Shown here one piece after another: positions 24,765-37,040 of a stretch of DNA of 64,000 nt; positions within the stretch are counted from its first letter, which is position 1; every line of letters begins with the position of its first letter. The DNA comes from an uncultured bacterium. Its GTDB lineage: Bacteria > Verrucomicrobiota > Verrucomicrobiia > Limisphaerales > UBA8199. Made by a program: the position numbers and the translations under genes. Where the stretch lies: NCBI GenBank assembly GCA_963749495.1, contig CAVVMW010000004.1, positions 576,001 to 640,000 on the forward strand, in the 5' to 3' direction. The notes beneath the pieces are model-generated. The model saw nothing but the letters and a program-made list of their open reading frames with translations, was not told the DNA's origin and made no database searches.

Positions 24765-24777
24765 ACGCGATTTGTTT

Positions 24778-25437
24778 TTACCTCATAATGATGGGCAGCG
24801 CCAGCCCTGACGCCCGCTTCCCCAGTGACCCAGTGGATCTTTGCACTGCCTTGTCATTCTTCACGAACAGATCCCACTCGGGAATGCCGCGCATGTTGCG
24901 GATCAACGCTGTGACCGGCATCTCCTTCGGAGCGCGGGGCGTGGTGAGCAGCTTGAGGCCCGCTTCGTGCGGCAGGCGGTTGCCCTTGCGGGCGTTCACG
25001 TCCCTGCTCGACCACACGAGGTTTTCCCACGTGTGTTTGCCGCCACGCGAACGCGGCAGAACATGGTCGAGGCTGCCTTCGTCGGGGCGCAACGCGCGGC
25101 CGGTGTATTGGCAGCGGTTGCCGTCGCGCTCGCGGATTGTGCGGGCGCAGAGCTTCGGGCGCTTCTTCGGCACCTTGGCGAAGTTCACGGCCACAATGAC
25201 CGCCGGCACGCGGATCGGGCCGCGCACGGTCCGCACCGCGTTATCCTGCGGACGGATCGGCAGCGTGATCCACTCGTCCCACGCCACGGGGCGGATGTGG
25301 TTCTCACCTCCGATCTCCAGGCCGGTCGCAACATTCGTTGCCATTTGGCAAAACGCTTCCTGGGGCGTGCGAATGTTGATTGCCTGCCAGTTGCGGTTCA
25401 GCACCAGCACAATCGACTTGTTCAGTATGTCGTTCAT
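24778..25437 (-). CDS. HNH endonuclease (McrA-like) at the 3' end of the tRNA array
   Basis: VLVLNRNWQAI, RDGNRCQY, LDHVLPRSRGG..WENLV....N..KG. Confidence 0.92.
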   Translation of the reverse strand: MNDILNKSIVLVLNRNWQAINIRTPQEAFCQMATNVATGLEIGGENHIRPVAWDEWITLPIRPQDNAVRTVRGPIRVPAVIVAVNFAKVPKKRPKLCARTIRERDGNRCQYTGRALRPDEGSLDHVLPRSRGGKHTWENLVWSSRDVNARKGNRLPHEAGLKLLTTPRAPKEMPVTALIRNMRGIPEWDLFVKNDKAVQRSTGSLGKRASGLALPIIMR

Positions 25438-25511
25438 AAAACGTTTCCACGCGGCCAGATCGCTTCTCGCGCTGAGGTGTTTGTTCTTTGTCGGGGCGTG
25501 TGCCCGGAAAT

Positions 25512-25586
25512 TGGCTGCCTCGCCTGGTTTTGCTCCAAGTCCTCCGGTTTCAGGGACCGGCGCGCTCCTGATTACGCCACGAGGCC
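25512..25586 (-). tRNA. tRNA-Gln(CTG); 5' end hit by hairpin element
   Basis: Hand-folded cloverleaf, loop CC-CTG-AA, encoded CCA. Confidence 0.8.
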
Positions 25587-25655
25587 CGCCGTCGCGCTTT
25601 GTGCTATGGCGCGCCAAGCAATTGGCCCGCCGAGCCGTAGCCGGCAGGCGAAGGC

Positions 25656-25729
25656 TGGTCGCCCGGGGAGGTTCTGCCCCTCCGATTTCTGGGTGTAGGC
25701 CAGACGTGATCCTATTTCACCACCGAGCG
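25656..25729 (-). tRNA. tRNA-Val(TAC)
   Basis: TCTGG-CCTACAC-CCAGA anticodon arm. Confidence 0.85.
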
Positions 25730-25734
25730 TTTCG

Positions 25735-25834
25735 AATGCGGAACTCGGAATGCGGGGTGTGGGGTGCCAAACGAGAACGAAGGTCGCTCGTGCGCGCGCC
25801 CCCATTCCGCACTCTGCATTCCGCACTCCGCACT
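25735..25834. repeat. Inverted heptamer-repeat hairpin (GAATGCG/CGCATTC type)
   Basis: aatgcggaactcggaatgcgg ... cattccgcactctgcattccgcact. Confidence 0.6.
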
Positions 25835-25839
25835 GGGAA

Positions 25840-25913
25840 TGGCTGCCTCGCTTGGATTCGCACCAAGACCGTCGGGGTCAAAGCCCGGCATGCTGCTGTT
25901 ACACCACGAGGCA
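25840..25913 (-). tRNA. tRNA-Gln(TTG)
   Basis: Loop CT-TTG-AC; U1-A72; CCA. Confidence 0.88.
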
Positions 25914-25953
25914 ATGGGTTGGCCTGCCAAGCCGTAGCCCGGAGGGCGAAGGC

Positions 25954-26030
25954 TGGTGGAGCCGGAGGTAGTTGCAACCTCACCAAACCGGATTAAAAGG
26001 CCGGTGCCGGTCTTCTGTGGCTTCGGCTCC
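25954..26030 (-). tRNA. tRNA-Lys(TTT)
   Basis: Loop CT-TTT-AA. Confidence 0.8.
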
Positions 26031-26037
26031 TTGAAAT

Positions 26038-26113
26038 TGGTGCTCGCGGCAGGATTTGCACCTGCACTGGCGACGCTCTCGACGTCGTGTCTCTTCTGTT
26101 GGACTACGCGAGC
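26038..26113 (-). tRNA. tRNA-Leu(GAG), short variable loop
   Basis: CGACG-TCGAGAG-CGTCG. Confidence 0.85.
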
Positions 26114-26121
26114 ATTGGAAA

Positions 26122-26193
26122 TGGAGCCTCCAGCCGGTGCTGCCCCGGCACGATTTTCTTACAAAGAAGATCCACAGGCTGCTGCCTGGAGGC
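26122..26193 (-). tRNA. tRNA-Thr(TGT), degenerate D arm
   Basis: Loop TT-TGT-AA; acceptor GCCTCCA/TGGAGGC. Confidence 0.7.
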
Positions 26194-26231
26194 GAAATGG
26201 CCTGCCGAGCCGTAGCGCTCGGCGCGAAGGC

Positions 26232-26303
26232 TGGTCGCAGTCCCCAGTGCTGCCCTGGGCACGGCGGGCGTATGAAACCTGCCTGAGCGCTGGCTCGACT
26301 GCG
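26232..26303 (-). tRNA. tRNA-Met(CAT) (or Ile2)
   Basis: Loop TT-CAT-AC; acceptor CGCAGTC/GACTGCG. Confidence 0.7.
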
Positions 26304-26331
26304 GTTCTGGCCGACGGCCACGCGATGAAAA

Positions 26332-26406
26332 TGGAGTCCCCACCCGGAATTGCACCGAGCTACCTCCAATACCAATGGAGCGCATCGCTGAAAATGCTTT
26401 GAGGGC
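26332..26406 (-). tRNA. tRNA-Thr(GGT)
   Basis: CTCCA-TTGGTAT-TGGAG. Confidence 0.8.
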
Positions 26407-26414
26407 CATGAAGC

Positions 26415-26529
26415 TGGTCGGCGCGAGACGACTTGCACCCGCCTTCGCTCAAGCTATGGCGGGGCAGGCGTCCAAGGCTGACTGATTCTGAGTCAGATGG
26501 ATCTGCTGTTCCCCGTCAGCCACGCGCCG
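26415..26529 (-). pseudogene. tRNA-Leu(CAG)-like with a 31-nt hairpin element (26438-26468) in the T arm
   Basis: Removing the insert restores GGACG-TGCAAGT-CGTCT. Confidence 0.7.
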
Positions 26530-26535
26530 AGAAAT

Positions 26536-26613
26536 TGGCGTCCCTGACCGGCTTCGCTCCGGTGATCTCCTGCATGAGAGGCAGGCATGTTGTCTGGACT
26601 ACACCACAGGGAC
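26536..26613 (-). tRNA. tRNA-Glu(CTC)
   Basis: CCTGC-CTCTCAT-GCAGG. Confidence 0.88.
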
Positions 26614-26618
26614 GGAAC

Positions 26619-26699
26619 TGGCGGGAGTGGAGAGTGCTGCCCTCTCTGCTTCTCGCATGTCAAATTCCGACTGGGTCGCGACTGATGAGCTACGCCCCC
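26619..26699 (-). pseudogene. tRNA-Val(GAC)-like pseudogene
   Basis: Acceptor and T arm largely intact, TT-GAC-AT loop, 5' anticodon strand replaced. Confidence 0.55.
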
Positions 26700-26703
26700 G
26701 AAA

Positions 26704-26776
26704 TGGAGCGGGTGAACGGGAATGGCACCTTCGTCTCGGCCTCGGCACAGCCGCATTACTGTTGAACCACCCCCGC
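26704..26776 (-). tRNA. tRNA-Gly(GCC)
   Basis: Loop GT-GCC-GA; U73. Confidence 0.75.
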
Positions 26777-26781
26777 AAAAT

Positions 26782-26857
26782 TGGTGTCCCCAGCCGGACT
26801 TCCACCAGCAACCTGGAGTTTAGGACACTCCCGCTCTGTGCTTTGAGCTATGGGGAC
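26782..26857 (-). tRNA. tRNA-Arg(CCT)
   Basis: GGAGT-GTCCTAA-ACTCC. Confidence 0.88.
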
Positions 26858-26861
26858 AAAA

Positions 26862-26971
26862 GGTCGAACCCCTGGCCGGTCTCTTCCACCGGCTCACACC
26901 CAGCGCTTTCCAAAGTCTCACAGGAAGTGAAAGGGGCTGGGCCGCTCGAGCTACTTCGCGTTCAGGGGTCC
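26862..26971 (-). ncRNA. tRNA-like RNA with 9-bp acceptor stem and expanded anticodon arm
   Basis: GGACCCCTG/CAGGGGTTC; CCCAGC/GCTGGG enclosing about 30 nt; GCCGG/CCGGC T-like arm; no CCA. Confidence 0.55.
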
Positions 26972-27041
26972 AAAATGGCCTGCCAAGCCGTAGCCGACAG
27001 GCGAAGGCGGGCCTGCCATGCCGTAGCCGACAGGCGAAGGC

Positions 27042-27133
27042 GGGTGCGCGCGTCCGGTAACGCTCCGGAACTCGGCACTCATCTAGTGCGATTCCGCTTA
27101 TAAGGCGGACGGTTCTCTTTGAACTACGCGCGC
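27042..27133 (-). tRNA. tRNA with TAT (Ile) anticodon and long variable arm
   Basis: TCCGC-CTTATAA-GCGGA; variable hairpin GCACT/AGTGC; 3' CCC supplied by the repeat. Confidence 0.75.
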
Positions 27134-27134
27134 A

Positions 27135-27222
27135 TGGCGGAATGCCGTGGACTTGCACCACTTGCCCGCAGGCACGCACTCGTTAGCACCGAGGCCCGGC
27201 TCGCTCCTCCGGTTGACATTCC
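27135..27222 (-). tRNA. tRNA-Ser(GCT)
   Basis: Loop GT-GCT-AA; long variable arm; G73. Confidence 0.85.
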
Positions 27223-27260
27223 GAAATGGCCGGCCAAGCCGCAGCTCGGAGAGCGAAGGC

Positions 27261-27335
27261 TGGTGCCCGCGGCAGGACTTGCACCTGCACTGTCGAAGGT
27301 TTGAGCTTCGCGCCTCTGCATTGGGCCACGCGGGC
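27261..27335 (-). tRNA. tRNA-Leu(CAA), short variable loop
   Basis: CGAAG-CTCAAAC-CTTCG. Confidence 0.88.
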
Positions 27336-27342
27336 GGCAGAT

Positions 27343-27417
27343 TGGTGCTCCCGGTCAGATTTGCACTGACACTGAACGGGGTTTAAGCCCGTTGCCTCTG
27401 CGTTGGGCTACGGGAGC
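27343..27417 (-). tRNA. tRNA-Leu(TAA), short variable loop
   Basis: ACGGG-CTTAAAC-CCCGT. Confidence 0.88.
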
Positions 27418-27438
27418 TGCTGGCGCAGGGCCACCAAA

Positions 27439-27514
27439 TGGTGCCGCGTGAAGGATTCGCACCTTCAACCTTCCCGTTCTGAGCGGGACGCCTCTGCTGT
27501 TGGGCTAACGCGGC
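27439..27514 (-). tRNA. tRNA-Leu(CAG), short variable loop
   Basis: TCCCG-CTCAGAA-CGGGA. Confidence 0.88.
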
Positions 27515-27520
27515 GTGAAT

Positions 27521-27566
27521 TGGCACTCCCAGCAGGACTCTCACCTGCATCTCCGACGTTCGAAGC
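27521..27566 (-). pseudogene. 3' half of split tRNA-Arg(TCG)
   Basis: G-CTTCGAA-CGTCG, T arm, TGGGAGT-G-CCA. Confidence 0.8.
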
Positions 27567-27707
27567 TTCAGGGCCTTTTAACGCAGTCGGGCCTCTCGGC
27601 CAACCCACAAATTCTGCTGAGGAGGCGAAAAAAAGGATGTTGACAGCTTTGACAGAGCGTGTTAATACTATATCCGCAGTGGATATATCTGCGAAAGTGA
27701 TAGTGCT

Positions 27708-28093
27708 ATGGCGATGATCGAAACCAACGCAGAAGGGATGCTGCCGCTCACTCCGGCAGTGTTTCATGTGCTGCTGGCCCTGGTCGAGGGCGAGCGGCAC
27801 GGCTATGCCATTATGCAGGAAGTGGCTGAAAGCACCCGGGGCCAGATCCACATGGGGCCCGGCACGCTTTACGGCACAATCAAGCGGCTATTGGCGGCCC
27901 GGTTGATCGAAGAGTCAGACCGGCGCCCCAACCCGAGCTGGATGATGAGCAACGCCGCTACTACCGTCTCACTGGACTTGGCCAGCAAGTGGTAAAGGCA
28001 GAAGCGCATCGCTACGAGCAATTGGCAAAACTTGCCCGCCGGAAAAGGCTACTCGGCCAGACCGCCAGGGTGGGGCATGCGAGGGGACTTTGA
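27708..28093 (+). CDS. PadR family regulator, frameshift near 27930
   Basis: HGYAIMQEV..GPGTLYGTIKRL; RRYYRLT in the other frame; upstream palindrome ATATCC-N5-GGATAT. Confidence 0.8.
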
Positions 28094-28095
28094 CG

Positions 28096-29064
28096 ATGTC
28101 GCAATCCTGCGAACCAAAACCGGTGGCGTTTTCCGGCGAGATTTATGAGCGCCTGCTGGCACTCTACCCGAGGGAGCATCGCCGGGAATATGGACCCGCG
28201 ATGGCGCAACTCTTCCGCAACCAGTGCCGCGATGCCTGGACTGAAGCACGCGGACGGGCATTGGCGCTCCTCTGGCTGCGCACCTCGATTGATTTGGTAA
28301 AAACCTCGATCCTGGAACACCTCCGGGATCTCAAACAAAGGAAAACCATGTTCAACAAATTGGTTTTGGCGGTTCGCAATACTCCGGGTCTGCGGGCCAC
28401 CTTTTTGGCCTTATTCGTACCGGTGTTCGTGCTGGTACTCGGCTTCTACATCCTGGTGGCGTTTCTGGTGCACGGTGAGTATGCGAGCACCGTTAGAATC
28501 AAAGTTCACAAGGCCGCCAGCTATGTTACACCTCCCAGTTATCAGCGATACGTGGTTGGGAACTACGATCCGTATTTTATCCGCAGCCAGTTTAGACTGA
28601 TCCAGTCGGATTCTGTTCTCGGCCGGGTGGCCAAGAAGCTCGACCTGGCCGAGGCTTGGGGGCCGAGATCTCCTGGTGGGGCGCTCAGCGATGACGACAC
28701 GATTGACCTGCTAAAGGAAAAGCTCGCTTTGCGGCCGGTGCGCAACACGGACCTGATTGAGGTCCGCGTCTACAGCAATAGCGCCAGGGAGGCCTCCAAT
28801 ATTGCGAATGTGCTGGCCGAGACTTATCGCAACCTCAGAAGCGAACAGCGGCAGAGTGCAGTGGAAGTGGAAGCGCCGAGAGCGCGGTTGGTGGAAATAG
28901 TGGACACTGCCGTGCCTGGGTCAAGGCCCGTGCGGCCCAATAAGCTGTTCAACGTGTTCTTCGGACTCTTTGGCGGATCCCTCCTGGGTGTGCTTGTTGG
29001 CGGAGTGGGAGCTTTCGTTGTGCTCCTATACCGGCGGCTATCACCGCCGGCTGCAACGGCCTGA
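28096..29064 (+). CDS. PadR-associated membrane protein with chain-length-determinant (Wzz-like) domain
   Basis: LLALYPREHRREYG..M; YDPYFIRSQ..IQS; IVDTAVP..PVRPNK; two TMs. Confidence 0.75.
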   Translation: MSQSCEPKPVAFSGEIYERLLALYPREHRREYGPAMAQLFRNQCRDAWTEARGRALALLWLRTSIDLVKTSILEHLRDLKQRKTMFNKLVLAVRNTPGLRATFLALFVPVFVLVLGFYILVAFLVHGEYASTVRIKVHKAASYVTPPSYQRYVVGNYDPYFIRSQFRLIQSDSVLGRVAKKLDLAEAWGPRSPGGALSDDDTIDLLKEKLALRPVRNTDLIEVRVYSNSAREASNIANVLAETYRNLRSEQRQSAVEVEAPRARLVEIVDTAVPGSRPVRPNKLFNVFFGLFGGSLLGVLVGGVGAFVVLLYRRLSPPAATA

Positions 29065-29239
29065 TCACCCTGAAAACCCAGGGCCGCTGATAGCCAGGGG
29101 GGTAGCTTTCAGCTTGAACTCAGGTCGGTCTGATCGGTTTGTGGAGTTCAGCGGGTTTTATGAGGGAGATCGCGCTCTTTCCATCATCAACCGAGTCTAA
29201 AATCGACTTCCTTCCCCTCGATTACTGAGGCACTCCTCA

Positions 29240-29270
29240 GTCGCGCTCTGATGATTTGAGCTGCGGGAGC
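29240..29270 (-). pseudogene. 5' half of split tRNA-Arg(TCG)
   Basis: GCTCCCG-CA-GCTC..GAGC-G-CGAC pairs with the 3' half at 27521-27566. Confidence 0.8.
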
Positions 29271-29278
29271 ATTGAAAT

Positions 29279-29370
29279 TGGTGGGCCGCCACGGATTCGC
29301 ACCTGGTGGCCGTGCGCAAGCACTTCTCGCCGGGTAAGAGCCGGGACTTCACTGCCAAAGTTTGCAGCCC
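29279..29370 (-). tRNA. tRNA-Lys(CTT)-like with extra hairpin in the variable/T region
   Basis: CCGG-CTCTTAC-CCGG; extra GTGC-TTGC-GCAC. Confidence 0.6.
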
Positions 29371-29374
29371 AAGC

Positions 29375-29447
29375 GCGACACGAAGGCGGAGTTGAACCGC
29401 CGCAGCCAGGTCTGTGGAGCCTGGCCGGCACCGGGATTTCGCGTCGC
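29375..29447 (-). ncRNA. tRNA mimic with 10-bp terminal stem and canonical T loop
   Basis: GCGACGCGAA/TTCGTGTCGC; GGCGG-TTCAACT-CCGCC; 9-nt anticodon-like loop; no CCA. Confidence 0.6.
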
Positions 29448-29453
29448 ATGAAA

Positions 29454-29555
29454 TGGAATCCCAAGCGCGCTGAATCTGGCGCCAGGCACGGTGGCCGTGC
29501 GGCAGCACCTTCGACCGTGCCGGGGTCTCTGGCGGCAGGCCAGATTCGCTTGGGA
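29454..29555 (-). ncRNA. Long-hairpin RNA ending in CCA
   Basis: TCCCAAGCG-AATCTGGC ... GCCAGATT..CGCTTGGGA-TTCCA. Confidence 0.5.
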
Positions 29556-29557
29556 AA

Positions 29558-29648
29558 TGGACGGGCATGAGAGTAGCGCGCCCTCTATTCCGGTTTGGAA
29601 GGTCCTTGCGGACGGCCATCAGCGTGTATCTCTCAACACTTATGCCCG
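29558..29648 (-). tRNA. tRNA-Gly(TCC)-like with about 16-nt insert in the anticodon arm
   Basis: CGGGCAT/ATGCCCG-T-CCA; GTCC-GCAA-GGAC before CT-TCC-AA. Confidence 0.6.
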
Positions 29649-29688
29649 ATGAAATGGCCCGCCATGCCGTAGCCCAGCGGGCGAAGGC

Positions 29689-29763
29689 TGGAGTCCCGTG
29701 CGGGAGTCGCACCCGCCTGTGTGGTTTTGCAGACCACTGCCTCGGCTGCTCGGCCAACGGGAC
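29689..29763 (-). tRNA. tRNA-Cys(GCA)
   Basis: GTGGT-CTGCAAA-ACCAC; U73. Confidence 0.9.
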
Positions 29764-29817
29764 ATGCTTCGAGATCGAAGCGCGGGCGGATGGTTGTGTC
29801 GCCCGCCCGCGGGGCGA

Positions 29818-30615
29818 TTAATTCTCGGCAGGCGGATCCGGTGGTGCGTTCGGCTTGCCATTTTTGAACGGCAGGAAGCCGCCGGGCATGCCGAGCACCA
29901 GCGTGTTGCCGGCGTGCTGTGCAGCCGAAAGCGACTGCATCAGACGCAGGTTCATCAGCGCCGGGTTGCCTTCCAACACGCGGGCCGCGTTGGCGAGATT
30001 GCGCAACGAGGCGCTTTCACCCCGGGCGCGTTCGAGTGCGGCCTGGCCTTCCTGCTTTGCCTTCAGCACATCGGCGAACGCACGCTTCAGCTCGGCCGGG
30101 AACATCACATCCTTCACTTCGACAGCGAGAACGTTGATGCCGATCTTCGCGGAGTCCCGCTGCACGCGCGCCAGCAGTTGCGCTCCGAGTTCGAGCCGCT
30201 CATTGAGCAGCGCTTCGACGGCGACTCTGTTTACGACCGCGCGCAATGCGAGCTGGGCGCTGTTGTATAGGTCGCACTGCCAGTTCTGCGTTTCGTGCGC
30301 AGCCTTGGCCGGGTCGGCCATCTGGTAGATGACGAGCAGGCTCATCTTCAGGCCGACGTTGTCAGCAGTGAGGACTTCCTGTCCCGCCACGAGCAGCGCG
30401 CCCTTGCGCAGGTCCTGTGCGCCCAGTGTGAAGTGCCGGCCCCAGCGAATGTGTCGGCCGGCCACGAGGACTTCGACGAACCTGCCCTTGTGATAGAGCA
30501 GGCCGGCGCAGCCTTCCGGCACGAGGAAGGCGTAACGAAATTCCCTCGCGACGGCGGCAACAATGACGCCGCCGAGAATGGCCATGAGGATTACGATGAG
30601 AATGTTGTAGTTCAT
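29818..30615 (-). CDS. SPFH/Band-7 (slipin-like) protein
   Basis: GQEVLTADNV, QLALRAVV, KDVMFP, ARGESASLRNLANAARVLEGNPALMNLR. Confidence 0.92.
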   Translation of the reverse strand: MNYNILIVILMAILGGVIVAAVAREFRYAFLVPEGCAGLLYHKGRFVEVLVAGRHIRWGRHFTLGAQDLRKGALLVAGQEVLTADNVGLKMSLLVIYQMADPAKAAHETQNWQCDLYNSAQLALRAVVNRVAVEALLNERLELGAQLLARVQRDSAKIGINVLAVEVKDVMFPAELKRAFADVLKAKQEGQAALERARGESASLRNLANAARVLEGNPALMNLRLMQSLSAAQHAGNTLVLGMPGGFLPFKNGKPNAPPDPPAEN

Positions 30616-30646
30616 GTCTATTCTCCTTTCTGGTTCCGAATTGAAA

Positions 30647-30752
30647 GCCCGGAGCAGGAGACCACCATCCAGCGGCGGAAGAATCGCGCAGAGGCAATTC
30701 TCGCAAAGCCGCCTTCGAGCTGCGCTCTCGCGCTGGTCTCACTGCTCCGAGC
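30647..30752 (-). ncRNA. Long multi-stem hairpin upstream of the SPFH gene
   Basis: GCTCGGAGCAG-TGAGACCA ... TGGTCTC-CTGCTCCGGGC. Confidence 0.45.
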
Positions 30753-30794
30753 CGTGGCGGGATTCCTCCCGTGTCCAACCAATGGAGTTGGTTT

Positions 30795-30879
30795 TCAGCC
30801 AACGTGCGGATTCGAACCGCGATGGATCAGCCCATTCGCAGGACCATTCCAGCGAATTGCTGGATGGCTGCTGGCTTGA
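30795..30879 (-). ncRNA. tRNA mimic with canonical TTCGAAT T loop
   Basis: AGCCAGC/GTTGGCT stem; GCGG-TTCGAAT-CCGC; no anticodon arm or CCA. Confidence 0.55.
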
Positions 30880-30892
30880 TCCAAATCGAAAA

Positions 30893-30967
30893 TGGGGTGA
30901 CCAACCGGACTCGCACCGGCACAAACGCCTTCACGGGGCGTGATGCTGCTGTTACATCATGATCACC
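30893..30967 (-). tRNA. tRNA-His(GTG)
   Basis: ACGCC-CCGTGAA-GGCGT; G-1/C73. Confidence 0.9.
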
Positions 30968-30973
30968 ATAAAA

Positions 30974-31208
30974 TGGCCTGCCGAACCGTAGCCAGGCAGG
31001 CGAAGGCTGGCCTGCCGTGCCGTAGCCGACAGGCGAAGGCTGGCCTGCCGTGCCGTAGCCGACAGGCGAAGGCTGGCCTGCCGTGCCGTAGCCGACAGGC
31101 GAAGGCTGGCCTGCCGTGCCGTAGCCGACAGGCGAAGGCTGGCCTGCCGTGCCGTAGCCGACAGGCGAAGGCTGGCCTGCCGTGCCGTAGCCGACAGGCG
31201 AAGGCTGG
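30974..31208. repeat. Seven tandem copies of a 33-bp hairpin element
   Basis: tggcctgccgtgccgtagccgacaggcgaaggc x6 plus one 34-bp variant; no spacers. Confidence 0.95.
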
Positions 31209-31281
31209 AGCCCCTGGTCGGACTCGCACCGACGAATACGAGTTTACGAAACTCGCCCTGTTGCTGCTGAGGCACAGGGGC
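31206..31281 (-). tRNA. tRNA-Thr(CGT)
   Basis: CGAGT-TTCGTAA-ACTCG. Confidence 0.85.
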
Positions 31282-31285
31282 AAAA

Positions 31286-31363
31286 TGGCGTCCGCGGCAG
31301 GAATCGCACCTGCGACCTCCACCTTCGCACAGTGGCGCTCTGATCTAACTGAGCTACGCGGAC
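31286..31363 (-). tRNA. tRNA-Arg(GCG)
   Basis: CCACT-GTGCGAA-GGTGG; A20. Confidence 0.85.
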
Positions 31364-31366
31364 AAA

Positions 31367-31444
31367 TGGCATCCGTGGTCGGACTTGCACCGACTACGCC
31401 CGGCTTGAAGGGCCGGCTGCTCGAGCTGCTTTGCATTCACGGAC
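31367..31444 (-). tRNA. tRNA-Glu(TTC)
   Basis: CCGGC-CCTTCAA-GCCGG. Confidence 0.85.
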
Positions 31445-31543
31445 GAAAAGCGTTCGCCGCAAAGGATGAGCACGCAGAGTCGCTGCTCTCCGGCAGGCGT
31501 TAACTCCGCGGGCTCAGTTCCTCCGTGGCGATATGAGGACGCG

Positions 31544-32674
31544 TCAGCGGTGAAACTTGCGCGTCTTGTAAGTGAGGAGTGGTCGCAATGTCGCGATGAC
31601 GGAGACAAGCCCGGCATCCACGAGGTCCTGGATCACTGCCTCGATGTTTTTGTAGGCGCCAGGCGCCTCTTCGTAGAGCAGGTCGCGCTCTTCGCAAACC
31701 ACCCGGCTCCCCAGCGGCGTCTGCACCAACTGATGCAGGCCGAAACGCTCGCGCATGCGCAAGCGGGCTGCGCTCCGAGCCCATTTGCGGCCGGCCCCGT
31801 GAGCGAGCGACCAGGCGCGGCTTTCGCCATCGCCGATTGGCTTCACGAGGTAGCTCAAAGCCCCGCGCGATCCGGAGATAACCACCGGGTCATCCTCGCC
31901 AACGACAGCGCCTTTGCGATGCACCCAGACAGTTTCACCGGCGCTTTCGTGACGGGTGATGCTGTTGTGGCAACCGTCCCAAAGGCACTCTGTCTCGGCC
32001 CCGAGCGCCGCGACAAAGCGACGGGCGATGACTTCGCGGTTGGCTTTGGCCCAGCGCATGGCGAAGTCGTGACCGCGGAGGTATTCCCCCGCCGCGAACG
32101 AGTCCGCCTCCACGCCGTTCGCGAAGTGTTGGTCCGCATGCTGGCGGAGGACGGATTCGCCCAATCCGCGCGAGCCGCTGTGAACCAGCACCACGAGTTG
32201 CTGCTTGCCCAACCCGAATTTCTTGAATTCGTCAGGGTCGAGGACTTTTTCGACCGCCTGCAACTCGGCGAAGTGATTTCCCCCGCCGATCGTGCCCAAC
32301 GCCGAATCAAATTCCGTGGAATCGAGCCGTCGTTCAGCGAGGAAGTCGCTGACGGATTCCGCCCACGGGTGTTCGAGGTCGAAGCGCAGCGTGGCCCATC
32401 GGTCGAGCTTGGCATCGCGACGCACAAGGTCGGTGGCGAACAACGCCATGCCGCAGCCGATGTCCCCGCCAATGACGTGCGGGTAAATCTCACCCTCGGT
32501 TACGAACGCGGCGCCGACTGGGGTGCCTTTGCCGGGATGCAAATCCGGGAAGCCCACTGCACGGCGGACACCAGCAAGCTTCGTGGTGGCGTAGAGTTGG
32601 CGCACCGCTTCGCCTTCGATCCAGCTTTGGGCCGAGGCGAAAAGGCGCACCTGAATTTCGGTCAGGGTGGTCAT
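31544..32674 (-). CDS. rtcB: RNA ligase RtcB family, short release-factor-H-coupled (RtcB2) type
   Basis: WIEGEA, PDLHPGKG, GGDIGCGM, GTIGGGNHFAE, HSGSRG, HRKGA, HGAGRK, EEAP.AYK. Confidence 0.93.
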   Translation of the reverse strand: MTTLTEIQVRLFASAQSWIEGEAVRQLYATTKLAGVRRAVGFPDLHPGKGTPVGAAFVTEGEIYPHVIGGDIGCGMALFATDLVRRDAKLDRWATLRFDLEHPWAESVSDFLAERRLDSTEFDSALGTIGGGNHFAELQAVEKVLDPDEFKKFGLGKQQLVVLVHSGSRGLGESVLRQHADQHFANGVEADSFAAGEYLRGHDFAMRWAKANREVIARRFVAALGAETECLWDGCHNSITRHESAGETVWVHRKGAVVGEDDPVVISGSRGALSYLVKPIGDGESRAWSLAHGAGRKWARSAARLRMRERFGLHQLVQTPLGSRVVCEERDLLYEEAPGAYKNIEAVIQDLVDAGLVSVIATLRPLLTYKTRKFHR

Positions 32675-32722
32675 GTTTCCTTTCGTGCCCGCAAAGCGGG
32701 ACCTTTTGAGTCATGAGTTAAG

Positions 32723-32800
32723 AATGCAGAGTGCAGAATGCGGAAGAGACTGCCGCCGTAATTAAACGGATTCTGCATTCTGCACTCCGCACTCTGCATT
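32723..32800. repeat. Inverted heptamer-repeat hairpin
   Basis: aatgcagagtgcagaatgcgga ... ttctgcattctgcactccgcactctgcatt. Confidence 0.65.
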
Positions 32801-32804
32801 TAAA

Positions 32805-32879
32805 TGGTCCCCGAGGTTGGTATCGCGCCAACGTCTCCTCCTCTTCAGGGAGGCGCTAAGCTGCCTCAGCTACTCGGAG
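32805..32879 (-). tRNA. tRNA-Phe(GAA)
   Basis: CCTCC-CTGAAGA-GGAGG. Confidence 0.85.
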
Positions 32880-32882
32880 GAA

Positions 32883-32979
32883 TGGCCTGCCGAGCCGTAG
32901 CCGCAGGCGAAGGCTGGCCTGCCACGCCGTAGCTTTAGCGAAGGCTGGCCTGCCACGCCGTAGCTTTAGCGAAGGCTGG
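32883..32979. repeat. Three tandem copies of the hairpin element
   Basis: tggcctgcc..gccgtagc..gcgaaggc x3. Confidence 0.9.
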
Positions 32980-33050
32980 TCGTCCCGGCAGGTAATGCTC
33001 CTGCGTCGCCCGGTTATCGACCGGGTGCTCTGCTCTTGAGCTACAGGACG
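32977..33050 (-). tRNA. tRNA-Ile(GAT)
   Basis: CCCGG-TCGATAA-CCGGG. Confidence 0.88.
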
Positions 33051-33051
33051 A

Positions 33052-33140
33052 TGGCGGAAGGCGTCGGTAACGCTCCGACCTCGGCAATGCCGATCCTGTT
33101 TTCGGGACAGGTGCAGCCAGCTTATATCTGCCTGCCTTCC
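33052..33140 (-). tRNA. tRNA-Ser(CGA)
   Basis: CCTGT-CCCGAAA-ACAGG; long variable arm. Confidence 0.85.
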
Positions 33141-33146
33141 ATAAAA

Positions 33147-33226
33147 TGTCAGGGTGGCAAGGTTCACCCCCGCGGCCTCCTGGTTCCGAACTCCCGACGC
33201 GTGGCGACTGCTGGCATTACACCCTG
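33147..33226 (-). pseudogene. tRNA-Pro(CGG)-like pseudogene
   Basis: CAGGGTG/CACCCTG acceptor; TT-CGG-AA; 5' anticodon strand replaced. Confidence 0.55.
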
Positions 33227-33230
33227 AAAT

Positions 33231-33305
33231 TGGCTGCCAGGGTTGGACTCGCACCAACACCGTGCGGTTTAACAAACCGTCGTGCTACTTTGACACCACC
33301 TGGCA
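33231..33305 (-). tRNA. tRNA-Asn(GTT)
   Basis: Loop TT-GTT-AA; G73. Confidence 0.85.
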
Positions 33306-33306
33306 A

Positions 33307-33382
33307 TGGCACTGCCGGCAGGACTTCCACCTGCATCGTTCCGCTTAGAAGGCGGGTGCCTCATGTGTTCGGCCACGGCAGC
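33307..33382 (-). tRNA. tRNA-Arg(TCT)
   Basis: Loop CT-TCT-AA. Confidence 0.85.
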
Positions 33383-33390
33383 ATTCGAAA

Positions 33391-33466
33391 TGGTCAGCGC
33401 GACAGGAGTTGCACCTGCGATCCCTCGGTCCCAGGCCGAGTGCGTTGGCTGCTACGCTACGCGCTG
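33391..33466 (-). tRNA. tRNA-Pro(TGG)
   Basis: CTCGG-CCTGGGA-CCGAG; C1-G72. Confidence 0.88.
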
Positions 33467-33468
33467 AT

Positions 33469-33544
33469 TGGCGGACCCGAAGGGAATTGCACCCTCAACC
33501 CTCCCGCAGACAACGGGGCGCTCTGCTTCTTGAGCTACGAGTCC
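33469..33544 (-). tRNA. tRNA-Asp(GTC)
   Basis: Loop TT-GTC-TG; G73. Confidence 0.85.
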
Positions 33545-33551
33545 GAAATGG

Positions 33552-33649
33552 CCTGCCGAGCCGTAGCCGCAGACCTAAACGGGAGCCCGCCTTCGCTAAG
33601 GCTACGGCAGGCACCCTTCGCCATCCGACACGCGGACGGCGAAGGCCGG
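33552..33649. repeat. Composite hairpin element with nested inverted copy
   Basis: cctgccgagccgtagcc ... cccgccttcgctaaggctacggc ... gcgaaggccgg. Confidence 0.75.
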
Positions 33650-33736
33650 TGGGAAGTGCTGGTAACGCTCCAGCTCGTCGCTTCCAGCTTCGTTTAACGA
33701 CACCCGATTTACAGTCGGGCAGCCGGATCACTTCCC
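33647..33736 (-). tRNA. tRNA-Tyr(GTA), D-arm-less with extended variable arm
   Basis: CCCGA-CTGTAAA-TCGGG; only 10 nt between acceptor and anticodon stems. Confidence 0.7.
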
Positions 33737-33743
33737 AGAGATC

Positions 33744-33816
33744 TGGTAGCGGGGGTGGGAGTTGCGCCCACGGAGGCTGAGCTTATGAGGCTCGCCTGAA
33801 TCTCATTCTCCCCGCA
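33744..33816 (-). tRNA. tRNA-Met(CAT), initiator-like (1:72 mismatch)
   Basis: GAGC-CTCATAA-GCTC; TGCGGGG/CCCCGCT. Confidence 0.75.
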
Positions 33817-33825
33817 ATGAATTGG

Positions 33826-33926
33826 CCTGCCAAGCCCTAGCCCGGCGGAGCCAAAGCCAGAGCCCACCTTCGCTAAAGCGACGGTGGGCAGCCTCCGCCC
33901 GCCGCGGTGCAGCGGGCGAAGGCTGG
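33826..33926. repeat. Composite hairpin element with nested inverted copy
   Basis: cctgccaagccctagcccg ... cccaccttcgctaaagcgacggt ... cgggcgaaggctgg. Confidence 0.7.
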
Positions 33927-33999
33927 TGGAGGACGGCGGGTAACGCTCCCGCTTATGCCTGCTTGCAGGGCAGGCGCATCACTTTTCTGCCACGCCCCC
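33924..33999 (-). tRNA. tRNA-Ala(TGC)
   Basis: CCTGC-CCTGCAA-GCAGG; G3:U70; one extra acceptor nt. Confidence 0.8.
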
Positions 34000-34014
34000 A
34001 GAAATCGAGAAGAT

Positions 34015-34088
34015 TGGCAAGTCGCCCTGGTGCTGCCCCAGGCAAGCTGAGTTTTGGAGACCCGGCTGCACAAGCTGGTGCGCGACTT
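34015..34088 (-). tRNA. tRNA-Trp(CCA)
   Basis: Loop CT-CCA-AA; G73. Confidence 0.78.
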
Positions 34089-34151
34089 TTTTTGCATTGT
34101 ATTTTCGGAACGCAGGCGACGTGAGAATCGAAAGCGCATTCCGAACGAAGT

Positions 34152-34225
34152 TGGTGCGGCCGCCGGGAATTGCACCCGGACTTCCTCCGTGGGGGGGAGG
34201 CATTCTGCTGTTAGATCACAACCGC
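34152..34225 (-). tRNA. tRNA-Gly(CCC)
   Basis: CCTCC-CCCCCAC-GGAGG. Confidence 0.8.
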
Positions 34226-34567
34226 GGAAATTGAGAGGGCCGGGAGCGTTGCTGCTCCCGGCCCATGCCATTTCAACAAAGAACAAACACCTCTTGCTAT
34301 CTTGCGATACCAACCCACGGTTTCACGGTGGTTCTTTCGGTGTTTTGGGGCACACCTCCTGCGAAGCCCTCAGATTGTAAAATCCGGCTTAACTCACTCG
34401 GCGCGCTTTTTGGCGACCTGTGGGCAAAGCCCACCGGTGGAGAACCTCGGCTCTCCCGCGCCTTCTTGTGTTTTGTGCCAGGCGACATCATCAAGAACGT
34501 CCGTATGCTTCTTCTCACAGTGCTTTGCCTTTCGTTGTCAAGTTCACTTTCTCAGTCGTGCAGGAAC

Positions 34568-34585
34568 AATAAAAAACCCTGCTTC
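34568..34585 (-). terminator. Half of an intrinsic terminator split by the IS (other arm 37041-37063)
   Basis: Empty site reads AACCCTGCTT-ACCGTAACGG-AAGCAGGGTT-TTTTATT on the minus strand. Confidence 0.75.
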
Positions 34586-37040
34586 CAGAACTCCTGACAT
34601 AGCCGTCAAACAAAATGTCCGCTTTTTGCCTCACGGCGCTTCCCGAATTGTGTAGCGCAGGCGCAAGCGCGAACCTGGAAAGAGGGTATTGGTCCGGTTG
34701 AGTTCCTCGCAAAGCGCGGCAATCGCCCGCGTGCGGTGCGGCGAACTTAGCGCAGCCAAGCTCACCCGCAACTCCGTTTGGGTGACTTCGAGATCCGCCG
34801 CGCTGGCCAAAGCCGATTGGATCAGAGTTCGACCTTCGTCGCCCACCCTCCGATAGTAGGGCGCGACTAATCTCAGCAAATCGCTCTCGGCTTGGTAAGC
34901 CACGATCTTAATCACATTGGTTAGATGTTTGCGTTCTGGAGCCAGTTTCACCACGGGCTCTTTGGTGATGCTTTGGATCGGCACTCGCCGGGGCACGGCG
35001 GCACGGCGTTTCTCCAGTCGCGCTACACGCTGCCAAGCAGTGTCGATTTGCTGGCCGAGCTTGCCCTGCGCGATCTTGAAGCCGCGCATGGTCTGCTGCT
35101 GCTGCTCCAGGTTGACCAGCGCCTCCAGGCCATATTCGGCCTGCAGCCGAGCCAGTTGGGCATACGCCTGGCGCAATTGGGCGTCCACGGCCGCCCAGAC
35201 CGGGTTGGGAACCTCACGAGTGGGATCATCAGGCACCGCGGCATATTCGACTAACGCGTCCAACGCGTATTCGTCGCACAGGTATTTCAGGAAATTCTCT
35301 TGTCGCCAGCGATCAAACATGTGATAGGCGACTTGGGCAGCGCACAGATCCCGGCGCGAGGTCAGGACGGGGGTTTGGTGCCCGTTGTCCCTCAGGCGGG
35401 TGACCTGCCGCATGCGCAGCTTGCCCTTGAGCAAGCGCACCTCCTGGTCGGCCAGGACGTAGAGGAAGGTCCGTCCCTCACAACGGGTGCGACATGGCCG
35501 GAAGCGCTTGCGGGGGACGCGGCGGCAGCGCCCTTTGCGGTACGTCAGCACGTCAAAGCCCGCGGCCAGGATTTGGAGGAAGAGCTTGGGACTGTAGCCG
35601 CCGCGATCAAAGGCTACGGTGATGCGTCGTTTGCCCACCAAGCTGCGCACCTGCTCCAGGATGCCGGGCAGCATCTTGACCAAGCCGGCGTTAGCCTGTG
35701 CCGTGACGACAAAGAGCGGATCGCCGCACGTGTCGTTGACCCAATAGTCCGAAGTGGCCGGCACCGAGAGGCGCATCTGAGCCACGTGGGCCTTGGGCAG
35801 ACGGTGCTTGCCGTGGTAAACCCGCACGTGGCCATCCACGTAGAGGAAACCCAAGGCGGCTCCGCGCAAGGCGACCCGTTGCTGGGCCAGAGCCAGGCCA
35901 AACTGCGCGGCGCGTCCGGTGGCCGCCAGGCAGGCCAGTTTCCGCCGCAGCGTTTTGACTTCGGGCGCCCGGTCCAAGCCCAGCACACGCCCCAAGTCTT
36001 GAGGGGAGTGTTCCTTGAGGCCCTCCGGTCGCTTGATGCGCCACAGCGCCATGAGCAAGAGTGTGAGCAAGCTGGTGCGCAATCCATAGAAGGCTGGCCC
36101 CAGGCTGCCGTAGATCCTCTGAGCACAGTCGAAAACGCCGCTGGCCACCAACGCCGGCAAGGCCAAGAGCACGCCGACGCACGGCACGGCGGCGGCGCAC
36201 CCGAACAACGGGGCTGCATCTTCCAGCAATCCCAGGCGTGCCAGCAACCGATCGGTCCAGCGATGAGCCGGGTCGGTGTCGAGGCTGCGCGGCAGTGGGC
36301 TCGGCGCCACGGATGCACAAAAAGCGGACAGTTTTGGGTTCCCCCCAGATGCGGGTGAATGAGTCGATGAAGGGGTCTCCACGGGGGGCTGGTTCGCAGC
36401 GGTGGTCGTCCGCGGCTCAAGAGGCAGTTCGGTCTGAACGACCATCCGTGCGGGCTTCCAGCCTAAACGTCGCACGGTTTTGCGGACGGCTTGCACACTG
36501 ACCCCAAGCCGCCGCGCGATCTCGTAGTGCGAGCGGCCTTGGGCCTTGAGCCGTTGGACCCAGCCTCGCCGAGAGGCCGCCAGGCGGGCACGCCCCTGCG
36601 GATAACCGCGGGGGCGTCCCAGTGCAGCCAAGCCGCCCCCCTCGAAGCGTTGTTGACAGCGCCGCACCGTGCGGACCGAGTAACCAAAGGCTCTGGCCAC
36701 GTCGTTCTGATCCGCCCAACCTACATTGATCAGGCTCACCATGGCGTGGGCTTCGGACATGCGGTCGCCCACCGCATACTGTGCCAGGGGCATTCCTGAC
36801 ACGAGCACAAGGCGGTGACCTTCCTGCGTCAGCAGCAGGCATCGCTCGTTGATGACATGGGTGCCTTGTGGGTTTCGCGCCTCTGGAAAGAGGTCGTCGC
36901 ATAGGGTATTGGCCATACGCGCCGATGTTAGCCCGGCGGTCAAAAAAGCGGACAGTTTTGGGTTCCCCCCCCCGCCAGTATTGTCCGCCCAGAAAATGCC
37001 CAGAAATGGCGAAAACTATGAGGCTATGTCAGGAGTTCTG
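34586..37040 (-). mobile_element. Insertion sequence (unclassified DDE type), 19-bp perfect IRs, 5-bp TSD GCTTC
   Basis: CAGAACTCCTGACATAGCC / GGCTATGTCAGGAGTTCTG; GCTTC at 34581 and 37041. Confidence 0.92.
34631..36943 (-). CDS. Putative transposase (two HTH + DDE-like region)
   Basis: YVDGHVRVY, AFDRGGYS, RWRQEN; bounded by IRs. Confidence 0.85.
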   Translation of the reverse strand: MTAGLTSARMANTLCDDLFPEARNPQGTHVINERCLLLTQEGHRLVLVSGMPLAQYAVGDRMSEAHAMVSLINVGWADQNDVARAFGYSVRTVRRCQQRFEGGGLAALGRPRGYPQGRARLAASRRGWVQRLKAQGRSHYEIARRLGVSVQAVRKTVRRLGWKPARMVVQTELPLEPRTTTAANQPPVETPSSTHSPASGGNPKLSAFCASVAPSPLPRSLDTDPAHRWTDRLLARLGLLEDAAPLFGCAAAVPCVGVLLALPALVASGVFDCAQRIYGSLGPAFYGLRTSLLTLLLMALWRIKRPEGLKEHSPQDLGRVLGLDRAPEVKTLRRKLACLAATGRAAQFGLALAQQRVALRGAALGFLYVDGHVRVYHGKHRLPKAHVAQMRLSVPATSDYWVNDTCGDPLFVVTAQANAGLVKMLPGILEQVRSLVGKRRITVAFDRGGYSPKLFLQILAAGFDVLTYRKGRCRRVPRKRFRPCRTRCEGRTFLYVLADQEVRLLKGKLRMRQVTRLRDNGHQTPVLTSRRDLCAAQVAYHMFDRWRQENFLKYLCDEYALDALVEYAAVPDDPTREVPNPVWAAVDAQLRQAYAQLARLQAEYGLEALVNLEQQQQTMRGFKIAQGKLGQQIDTAWQRVARLEKRRAAVPRRVPIQSITKEPVVKLAPERKHLTNVIKIVAYQAESDLLRLVAPYYRRVGDEGRTLIQSALASAADLEVTQTELRVSLAALSSPHRTRAIAALCEELNRTNTLFPGSRLRLRYTIREAP

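Follow-up and report, generated by a model that had tools for sequence, protein, structure and literature searches.

The defining feature of REP/RAYT systems, in which repetitive extragenic palindromic (REP) sequences are paired with REP-associated tyrosine transposases (RAYTs), is a cognate Y1 HUH transposase gene flanked by its own REPs. As far as the partial texts of PMC3733652, PMC3479197 and PMC3116915 go, the REP/REPIN sequences with their RAYT (TnpA-REP) and the GTAG-tagged REPs are among the closest known counterparts of the element reported here, and the available part of PMC3733652 describes GTAG-tagged REPs in the Planctomycetes–Verrucomicrobia–Chlamydiae (PVC) group and in Bradyrhizobium. 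Transposons of the IS200/IS605 type offer a second comparison: by the account in the sections of PMC3479197 available to us, their cleavage site follows bases complementary to those 5′ of a hairpin foot, a rule that the REP nuclease follows in reduced form. At the level of the locus, the nearest parallel is the L-array, a long same-strand tRNA array with dozens of tightly packed CCA-encoding genes, an upstream HNH gene and a link to RtcB (PMC8421152). Here we describe a hairpin element that is planted at the CCA ends of tRNA genes in such an array. It lies in a stretch of 64,000 nt, hereafter the window, from an uncultured verrucomicrobial bacterium of the lineage UBA8199 (assembly GCA_963749495.1, contig CAVVMW010000004.1, positions 576,001 to 640,000). 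On balance, we take it to be a family of 31–34-nt non-autonomous insertion elements, that is, hairpin-forming mobile DNA.

The core pattern of the element (GCCGTAGC-N3-14-GCGAAGGC) is matched 16 times in the window and not once in any of 100 dinucleotide-preserving shuffles. A fuzzy scan recovered 19 plus-strand copies (17 simple ones of 31–34 nt and two composites of ~100 nt) and two minus-strand copies, to which a covariance model (R1, made from 13 window copies) contributed two nested minus-strand copies (33586–33611 and 33863–33892). The resulting 23 copies, the two nested ones included, agree with what an earlier sequence-only reading of this DNA had counted. The unit of the window reads CCTGCC-NN-GCC-GTA-stem-loop-stem-GAA-GGC-TGG; in general form, the element strand carries, from 5′ to 3′, a tail C-Y-T-G-C-C-N-A, the foot strand GCC, GTA, a variable inner stem with its loop, GAA, the foot strand GGC and a terminal NGG. 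GTA and GAA make up a conserved 3 × 3 internal loop, present in 105 of 163 distinct copies, with the GTA(G) lying within the helix behind the GCC/GGC foot, and the inner stem is variable in sequence and perfectly paired. The 8-nt 5′ tail has no 3′ counterpart, which renders the whole asymmetric. A scan of positions 24000–36000 against Rfam 15 (E ≤ 1) returned no hairpin family, just tRNAs and three weak, chance-level matches.

The fold is borne out by compensatory changes, which the sequence-only reading had noticed in the upper stem. Among 57 distinct copies of this genome, the third inner pair is CG in 22, UA in 12, GC in 8, GU in two and AU in one; the proposed pairs form standard pairs in 84.2% of the cells of this set and in 96.8% of those of 106 distinct copies from other genomes. 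The observed covariation was reached by none of 500 shuffles, and slid registers drop to 20–46%. Pairing extends, as the sequence-only reading had not noticed, to the bases that flank the foot: the pair 8-32, formed by the base before the foot and the first base of the terminal trinucleotide, is AT in 77 and CG in 37 of 160 copies, being A:T in TGG-ending and C:G in GGG-ending copies (by set, 40 AU and 16 CG among the 106 copies elsewhere; 21 CG and 20 AU in this genome). Beyond it, 6-34 is CG in 150 of 160 copies and 7-33 pairs in just 61 of 160 (67 counting G.T). The inner stems are nearly all Watson–Crick (535 pairs versus 3 G.T), a purity like that of DNA palindromes, and the element strand folds with a lower energy than its complement (−10.9 versus −8.8 and −8.0 versus −5.9 kcal/mol in two comparisons).

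That the element is inserted DNA, polymorphic between paralogous and orthologous sites, is shown by filled and empty versions of the same site. For this purpose the flanks of each copy were compared separately against the whole genome (11.4 Mb in 31 contigs, of which C5, C21 and the like are members). A tRNA-Glu gene is filled with a 33-nt copy in its C5 paralogue and empty, with a gap of 0, in the window; a tRNA-Asn gene is filled with a 32-nt copy in C21 and empty, again with a gap of 0, in C25, the window Asn gene being empty by eye; and at the Leu-CAA gene of C21 the tRNA is separated from the first copy by a second, different one (67 versus 34 nt). A further source is provided by contigs from four RNA/DNA sequencing runs, which at ≥90% likeness derive from relatives or paralogous arrays (no more than 0.17 of the sampled words occur in any run), leave 28.1–29.2 kb without cover and inform on joints rather than on transcript ends or levels. 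In these contigs, the three copies at 32886–32979 are replaced by 8 letters (runs X17 and X18; joint 32877→32977), the composite at 33552–33649 is absent (X16, X17 and X18), the tRNA-Tyr there ending in CCA, the copy at 25923–25956 is skipped in two RNA contigs of X18 (joint 25914→25954), and the CCA of Thr-CGT is joined directly to plain spacer in a related contig that lacks seven copies (joint 25907→31206). The search for empty sites in related arrays that the sequence-only reading had called for was thus positive.

The two tRNA-Tyr alleles also locate the boundary of the element. The empty allele reads tRNA-CCA-spacer and the filled one tRNA-CCG-element-CCA-spacer; hence, the trinucleotide next to the tRNA is the element's own and the distal CCA is the original one, as the sequence-only reading had it when it spoke of a displaced CCA and a replacement brought by the insertion. 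In keeping with this, the terminal NGG varies with the element and not with the target. The last three bases (TGG, GGG or CGG) are part of the element.

All the called tRNAs of the array lie on the minus strand; consequently, a plus-strand copy is antisense and a minus-strand copy sense to them. Ten tRNA or tRNA-like 3′ ends in the window are directly abutted by antisense copies, the number given by the sequence-only reading. The leftmost is the tRNA at 25659–25729 (called by Rfam), its CCA being abutted by a copy at 25626–25658 (+). Two uncalled tRNA-like genes follow: one, non-canonical, at ~25957–26030, with the copy at 25923–25956 (+), which has the best covariance score (56.4 bits) and whose site holds a composite of 102–103 nt in the C5 and C21 paralogues, and the other at ~26235–26305, with a copy at 26201–26234 (+). 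Ile-TAT (27042–27134) carries two tandem copies (26979–27044, +) ending in GGCGGG and, as previously noted, its encoded end is CCC; the displaced TGG of this site is at 26976–26978, and the C21 paralogue has two different copies that end in TGG. There is a single copy at Leu-CAA (27230–27263, +), with the gap of 34 that stands against 67 in C21, and one at Cys-GCA (29658–29691, +), the layout of which is near-identical in a genome of the same genus (L023). Thr-CGT is followed by seven head-to-tail copies (30977–31208, +), six identical and the distal one different, and three tandem copies (32886–32979, +) lie between the CCA of Ile-GAT and the 5′ end of Phe-GAA. Finally, composites stand at Tyr-GTA (33647–33735, read by eye) and Ala-TGC. 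The first (33552–33649, +) has an antisense host copy ending in GGCCGG with a sense copy nested in its loop (33586–33611, −), recurs at the C25 paralogue and, as the sequence-only reading had also noted, leaves the window tRNA with a CCG end; the second (33826–33926, +) harbors the nested sense copy 33863–33892 (−).

The two inverted copies that had been noticed inside tRNAs could be placed to the base. One (25585–25618, −; 39.7 bits; ending in GGCGGG) splits the acceptor stem of a tRNA-Gln(CTG)-like gene (25512–25586) between its bases 2 and 3; deleting its 34 nt restores the 5′ acceptor strand TGCCTCG, and the C5 and C15 paralogues are also filled. The other (26438–26468, −) separates position 53 of the T stem from position 54 of the T loop in a Leu-like type II tRNA, where GGACG precedes and TGCAAGT follows the copy.

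From these and the remaining arrays of the genome a single target rule emerges: the element sits immediately 3′ of (T)GG on whichever strand carries it. Across the arrays, 40 antisense copies have TGG as the left flank in 32 cases and as their own end in 33, and the 27 sense copies end in GGG in 24 cases. Sense copies at G53/first T-loop base occur in three different tRNAs, namely the Leu-like gene of the window, Glu in C5 and Asn in C5 and C21; of the remaining sense copies one follows T1-G2 of tRNA-Gln and the others lie within loops of other copies. In each sense insertion the element's terminal GG or TGG stands in for the displaced bases. At tRNA and transfer-messenger RNA (tmRNA) genes the GG used is the complement of the CCA, so that the old CCA is pushed downstream and the TGG of the element becomes the new C74-C75-A76, with GGG and CGG variants giving CCC and CCG ends that the CCA-adding enzyme would have to repair. 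This (T)GG rule also covers the sense insertions at G53 and G2, the nesting and the tandem runs, in which the end of each copy offers a new TGG target. The GG-junction preference which the sequence-only reading had proposed thus held up, both in the left flanks cited above and, in other genomes, in a G at position −9 in 44 of 45 copies that abut a tRNA or tmRNA.

Within this genome the specificity for tRNA ends is nearly absolute. Every one of the 39 covariance-model matches with E ≤ 0.001 is located in a tRNA array or directly beside a tRNA or tRNA-like gene; as the best 150 first-look candidates were scored per genome, this and the other per-genome match counts are lower bounds. By nhmmer, one full-length copy falls outside the listed array regions (C4:508110), and it too abuts a tRNA-like gene. 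An element follows 11 of the 56 ARAGORN calls in the array regions, a canonical tRNA-Asp of C28 among them, and 0 of the 70 elsewhere in the genome. Leu-CAA, Pro-CGG and a Thr-like gene have neighboring copies with an identical inner-stem variant; therefore, the element moves independently of the tRNA.

The element is by no means confined to this genome, a spread that the sequence-only reading could not have seen, any more than the tmRNA targets or the recurrence at the T loop. Of 30 further genomes from its family or order, 13 have matches; among 11 such loci examined, seven contain tRNAs and four directly adjoin the 3′ end of a called tRNA. In species-representative genomes the exact 19-base core pattern is found at at least 122 loci in at least 10 phyla; the labels among the matches listed include Verrucomicrobiota, Alphaproteobacteria (with eight cultured Bradyrhizobium records), Bacteroidales, candidate phyla of the Patescibacteria group, TM6/Babeliales, Nitrospira, Acidobacteriota, Lentisphaerales, Kiritimatiellales, Planctomycetes and others. 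Among 125 matches listed, 45 abut a tRNA or tmRNA CCA end (44 of them that of a tRNA called by ARAGORN on the other strand, the remaining one that of a standard tmRNA), and in two two-piece alphaproteobacterial tmRNA genes a match lies just behind the internal CCA, a placement based on Rfam coordinates and, in one of the two (L108), on reading of the flanks. The abutted tRNAs elsewhere are ordinary ones with TTCGA T loops, and include lone housekeeping tRNAs outside arrays. In a Gracilibacteria-labelled genome of 1.1 Mb, seven of 11 matches abut called tRNAs and an eighth lies against a tRNA-like end missed by both programs. In four genomes other than that of the window, the matches number 4–11 each. 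The logo of the 45 abutting copies has C-T-G-G on the left, followed by C-Y-T-G-C-C-N-A (with G in 32 copies at position −10), and on the right T-G-G in about three quarters of the copies, i.e., tRNAs ending in CCA-CCA. Of the 80 non-abutting matches among those listed, 45 have a tail-like 5′ flank, and some of the 80 are probably due to chance, some tens being the estimate expected over the 596-Gb collection. Rfam uncovered no other non-coding RNA genes at 20 loci of copies away from tRNAs. Phages were considered as carriers and dismissed: of 18 exact matches in viral contigs none abuts a called tRNA, and several plainly lie in coding sequence.

A distinct arrangement is seen at alphaproteobacterial tRNAs, where an antisense TGG-type copy is followed by the CCA, a short spacer and then a sense GGG-type copy in 10 of 10 printed loci. 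The composites of the window and a tandem array in C28 are built of the same antisense and sense parts, nested in one another; in C28 (L013:2690–3860), a canonical tRNA-Asp is succeeded by ten tandem composite units of ~120 nt, each a host with its nested copy. Orthologous sites were compared at the 3′ end of the Bradyrhizobium tRNA-Tyr gene in a 31-genome sample of that genus: of 29 loci, 17 carry the element (family 1; three nested, one degenerate), six carry a sister family and six have no such element. The sister family has the same architecture with the foot CGC/GCG and the tail CTGCGC; this address is, accordingly, used repeatedly by two lineages with feet that differ by compensatory changes.

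How does the element compare with the described systems? With REPs it shares an imperfect palindrome of 20–40 nt, a conserved GTAG, mismatched stem bases, compensatory stem variants, tandem clusters and the occasional insertion into an open reading frame (ORF), and with REPINs the inverted doublets just described. It differs from them in that its GTAG is inside the stem, behind a foot of 3–6 bp, whereas that of REPs is 5′ of the foot; in being low-copy and confined to tRNA-like 3′ ends, unlike the REPs, which are dispersed in extragenic space at high copy; and in having the same core in many phyla and, at the Y1 loci examined, no Y1 gene flanked by copies. The copies in Bradyrhizobium may equal one of the 24 GTAG families (e.g., GTAG-14) in the available part of PMC3733652, with which the comparison is by description and not by consensus sequence; the supplements of that paper held no matching sequence. 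Insertion 3′ of a short fixed sequence with no true target duplication (32 of 40 antisense copies have TGG on their left) is shared with IS200/IS605. The recognition of a hairpin on one strand and, going by the available text of PMC3479197, the complementarity of the bases 5′ of its foot to those before the cut would be further likenesses. Unlike IS200/IS605, with two subterminal hairpins, it consists of one 33-nt hairpin, targets the trinucleotide of its own end and has no cognate transposase that we found. Rickettsia palindromic elements (RPEs), which are named in the available portion of PMC3733652, are alike in being small palindromic repeats that enter functional genes without destroying them. 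[quoted passage not shown] RPEs, at ~100–150 bp, are restricted to one genus, and we know of none aimed at CCA ends. In the full texts that we searched, no repeat targeted to the tRNA CCA end is described, and the two longer core words, CGAAGGCTGG and CCAGCCTTCGC, have 0 occurrences in the papers listed for them. What appears new, GTAG families having been compared by description, is a REP-like single-strand mini-element with a precise new address and a self-repairing junction.

The reading that we prefer, and hold to be somewhat the better bet, is that of a single-strand, HUH-type, trans-mobilized mini-element with specificity for CCA ends. An HUH-type enzyme supplied in trans would excise the element and rejoin it while it is folded as a single strand. 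The C-N-A 5′ of the foot can pair with the terminal T-G-G, which would reproduce the guide/cleavage logic of IS200/IS605, and it is this match to the cleavage-site rule that favors an enzyme of the single-strand HUH type. Copies would then persist at CCA ends by virtue of the insertion repairing what it interrupts. A class of sequence usually seen as scattered litter has in this case an address, the tRNA-like CCA end, and a built-in repair. If the preferred reading is true, its simple yet structure-aware targeting rule would be open to study in cultured Bradyrhizobium that differ at tRNA-Tyr; the many genomes in which tRNAs have encoded CCC or CCG ends, or “CCA...CCA” trailers, would have an explanation for them; a common cause of missed or split tRNA genes and of spurious small ORFs would gain an annotation marker; and there would be a test case for the spread of single-strand mini-elements between phyla as distant as the Patescibacteria-group lineages (Gracilibacteria, Saccharibacteria), Verrucomicrobiota and Alphaproteobacteria.

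Several observations weigh against this reading, first among them those from the search for the moving enzyme. The genome has 24 matches to Y1_Tnp (PF01797) and 20 to Y2_Tnp; at the 25 Y1_Tnp loci examined (the best eight of the 24 in this genome, six in the genomes G032–G034 and 11 in the Bradyrhizobium-genus sample), no copy (E ≤ 0.1) lies within ~1.5 kb. No Y1_Tnp match at all was obtained in the element-bearing genomes G035 and G031 or in 10 of 22 element-bearing genomes of the Bradyrhizobium-genus sample; copies in such genomes may be relics. The RAYT/REPtron link was rejected: no Y1 gene at these 25 loci is flanked by copies, and membership of REP/RAYT is therefore unsupported, the resemblance lying in the mode of working. 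The interpretation given by the sequence-only reading is supported except for this specific link. IS91-like (Y2) elements fare no better as a source, since their ends are unlike the hairpin. Furthermore, a target of 2–3 nt alone cannot explain the near-exclusive location at tRNA-like 3′ ends, and the three independent sense insertions at 53/54 hint at recognition of structure. The 19 identical core bases over many phyla are unusual for a REP-like sequence, and could point to a conserved cellular partner or to an RNA function. An RNA-like feature, a cUUCGg loop, is found on the tRNA-sense strand in the Gracilibacteria-labelled genome. Finally, taken as single sequences, window copies fold only weakly better than shuffles (z of −0.9 to −2.0, against −3.2 for the Gracilibacteria-labelled and −4.5 for a Bradyrhizobium copy), and the case for structure therefore rests on the covariation. 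The confinement to tRNA ends, the recurrence at 53/54 and the 19-base conservation keep readings that invoke an RNA role, template switching or RNA priming in play; these rank below mobile DNA because some insertions have the opposite orientation, relatives have entered ORFs, copies run in tandem, orthologous sites can be empty and G.U is scarce.

The alternative that survives best, if still an unlikely one, is that the hairpin is a functional module of the 3′ trailer RNA, a signal for maturation, protection or termination that selection rather than targeting keeps at the CCA. Once transcribed along with the tRNA, it would pair the tRNA's own CCA into the foot (CCAGCC/GGCUGG) and offer a second, free CCA, a detail that we hold to be equally unlikely. 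Such a module would account for the fixed orientation at all 45 abutted tRNA/tmRNA genes among the matches listed, for the complement of CCA in the foot and for the core conserved across phyla; the cUUCGg loop mentioned above and the related array sequence in contigs from RNA libraries also speak for it. It sits ill with the copies in the opposite orientation that lie in T loops, in an acceptor stem and nested in other copies, and with the relatives that interrupt protein-coding ORFs. Runs of up to seven identical copies and the six empty sites of 29 orthologous ones suit a needed signal poorly. Away from its array regions, this genome has the element at 0 of 70 ARAGORN calls. There is, moreover, no U tract behind the hairpin, G.U is nearly absent (3 against 535 Watson–Crick pairs), and a function would still require a mechanism of spread.

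More doubtful is a process without any dedicated enzyme, in which replication template switching at TGG/CCA microhomology, with stalling at hairpins and highly transcribed tRNA genes, together with slippage and unequal recombination, would multiply the hairpins. The same 2–3 bases flank every insertion, tandem copies are identical, composites hold fold-back duplicates of one arm and many element-bearing genomes lack a Y1 transposase match, all of which speaks for such a process. However, three-base microhomology is available everywhere and the copies are almost solely at tRNA-like ends; the unpaired GTA/GAA and the tail, conserved across phyla (105 of 163 distinct copies), imply a recognition factor; and two sister families share one tRNA-Tyr site. 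We are just as doubtful of a reading in which the element recognizes the tRNA-like acceptor end itself, in tRNAs and tmRNA of at least 10 phyla, by means of machinery that has no relation to known transposases. The mature RNA might then serve as primer with its CCA 3′-OH, or have the element joined to it there; this mechanism would have left the CCA at both junctions as its footprint, and a widely conserved protein of a new type would grip the hairpin by its GUA/GAA loop.

Quite improbable is a specific RNA-mediated route by which the CCA 3′-OH of a mature tRNA or tmRNA anneals to the UGG of an element transcript, is extended by reverse transcription (or has the hairpin ligated to it) and is copied back. 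It accounts for the specificity toward CCA-ended RNAs, tmRNA included, and for the CCA at both junctions, and there is an RtcB ligase gene in the arrays; against this, insertions after G53, after G2 and in ORFs require other primers, the distal side offers no homology for recombination, and no reverse transcriptase was seen, no search having been made for one. The feeblest case is for a cassette recombination site akin to the attC sites of integrons, which are folded single-strand sites with unpaired bases, by which tRNA genes would be shuffled between HNH-tRNA-RtcB arrays: the tRNA-hairpin units are laid out in arrays that are paralogous and rearranged, but around a third of the array tRNAs have the hairpin (10 of ~30 in the window), lone housekeeping tRNAs of other phyla carry it and no integrase was seen beside the arrays in the Pfam annotation.

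Returning to the preferred reading of mobile DNA, we also recorded the element or its relatives within coding sequence. A 31-nt relative (tail ACCTGTCCC, end GG-A) interrupts the ORF of an IS91-like Y2 transposase and breaks its frame, always at one fixed point, between ..WRDL and ILRVWHVDPLCCPVC, in 1–5 tandem copies; it was located at L017:3100–3310 (C10:53.1 kb) and at at least eight further loci of this genome. This Y2 gene was rejected as a carrier, being instead a victim of insertion. In C21 (L022:2343–2375), a 33-nt copy stands in frame within a TIR-like ORF (..LAERLR, 11 codons, KDGLKVW), with three more copies less than 300 nt away.

The host locus itself matches the L-array of PMC8421152. 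It spans 25512–34225 on the minus strand, with more than 25 called tRNAs (18 by ARAGORN, 20 by Rfam and more by relaxed ARAGORN) and uncalled tRNA-like genes. At its head is an HNH endonuclease gene (24778–25440, −; Pfam HNH_4/HNH_5) with paralogues beside the arrays of C5, C7, C15 and C21, and within it an RtcB RNA ligase gene (31544–32674, −; Pfam RtcB, E 9.5e-73), copies or fragments of which are in the C5, C15 and C25 arrays. In several paralogous arrays of this genome, one end is likewise occupied by the HNH gene. Hairpins or palindromes are nowhere mentioned in PMC8421152, and the element also occurs, in other phyla, at ordinary single tRNA genes outside arrays.

Some further features of these arrays deserve record. 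The T-loop position 55 of array tRNAs is G and not U (TGC, AGC, TGA, CGC and others) in 52 of 53 CCA-ending ARAGORN calls, as at 25840–25913, 27261–27514 and 33231–33544 of the window and in the arrays of C5, C7, C15, C21 and C25, while tRNAs of the genome outside arrays have TTC in 52 of 54; this G55 feature is absent from PMC8421152. Two stretches of the window that neither ARAGORN nor Rfam called (25957–26035 and 26235–26312) are tRNA-like, with an acceptor stem and CCA and with odd loops, one being a 9-nt anticodon loop. Some tRNA CCA ends are immediately followed by palindromes of ~110 nt that belong to a second repeat family, composed of GAATGCG/GAGTGCG heptads (25715–25838 and 32720–32800 in the window, and many in the C5 array, L009), one of which is skipped in RNA contigs (joint 25729→25840). 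A motif like AATCAACGACTTAC lies 5–15 nt downstream of at least nine ordinary tRNAs of the genome (e.g., C10:420008, C22:166597 and C23:230227), and a similar one is found behind the “empty” tRNA-Tyr in two genomes of the Bradyrhizobium genus (L204 and L224).

The C5 array (L009:6370–6830) contains two inverted matches to Acido-Lenti-1 (RF01687; 44.7 and 38.3 bits) within a ~450-nt palindromic insert by which a tRNA-like gene is interrupted; considered as the hairpin, they proved to be a different motif. In the same array (L009:8690–8770), the RtcB paralogue is split by another GC-rich palindromic insert, tblastn recovering it in two pieces. In the window, positions 27700–28000 hold a PadR-like reading frame with an in-frame stop whichever set of coordinates is taken, and a Transposase_29 insertion sequence (34631–36943) adjoins the array; elsewhere in the genome this transposon has five further full-length copies with at least 99% protein identity, one more that is split into two pieces and one 74% relative.

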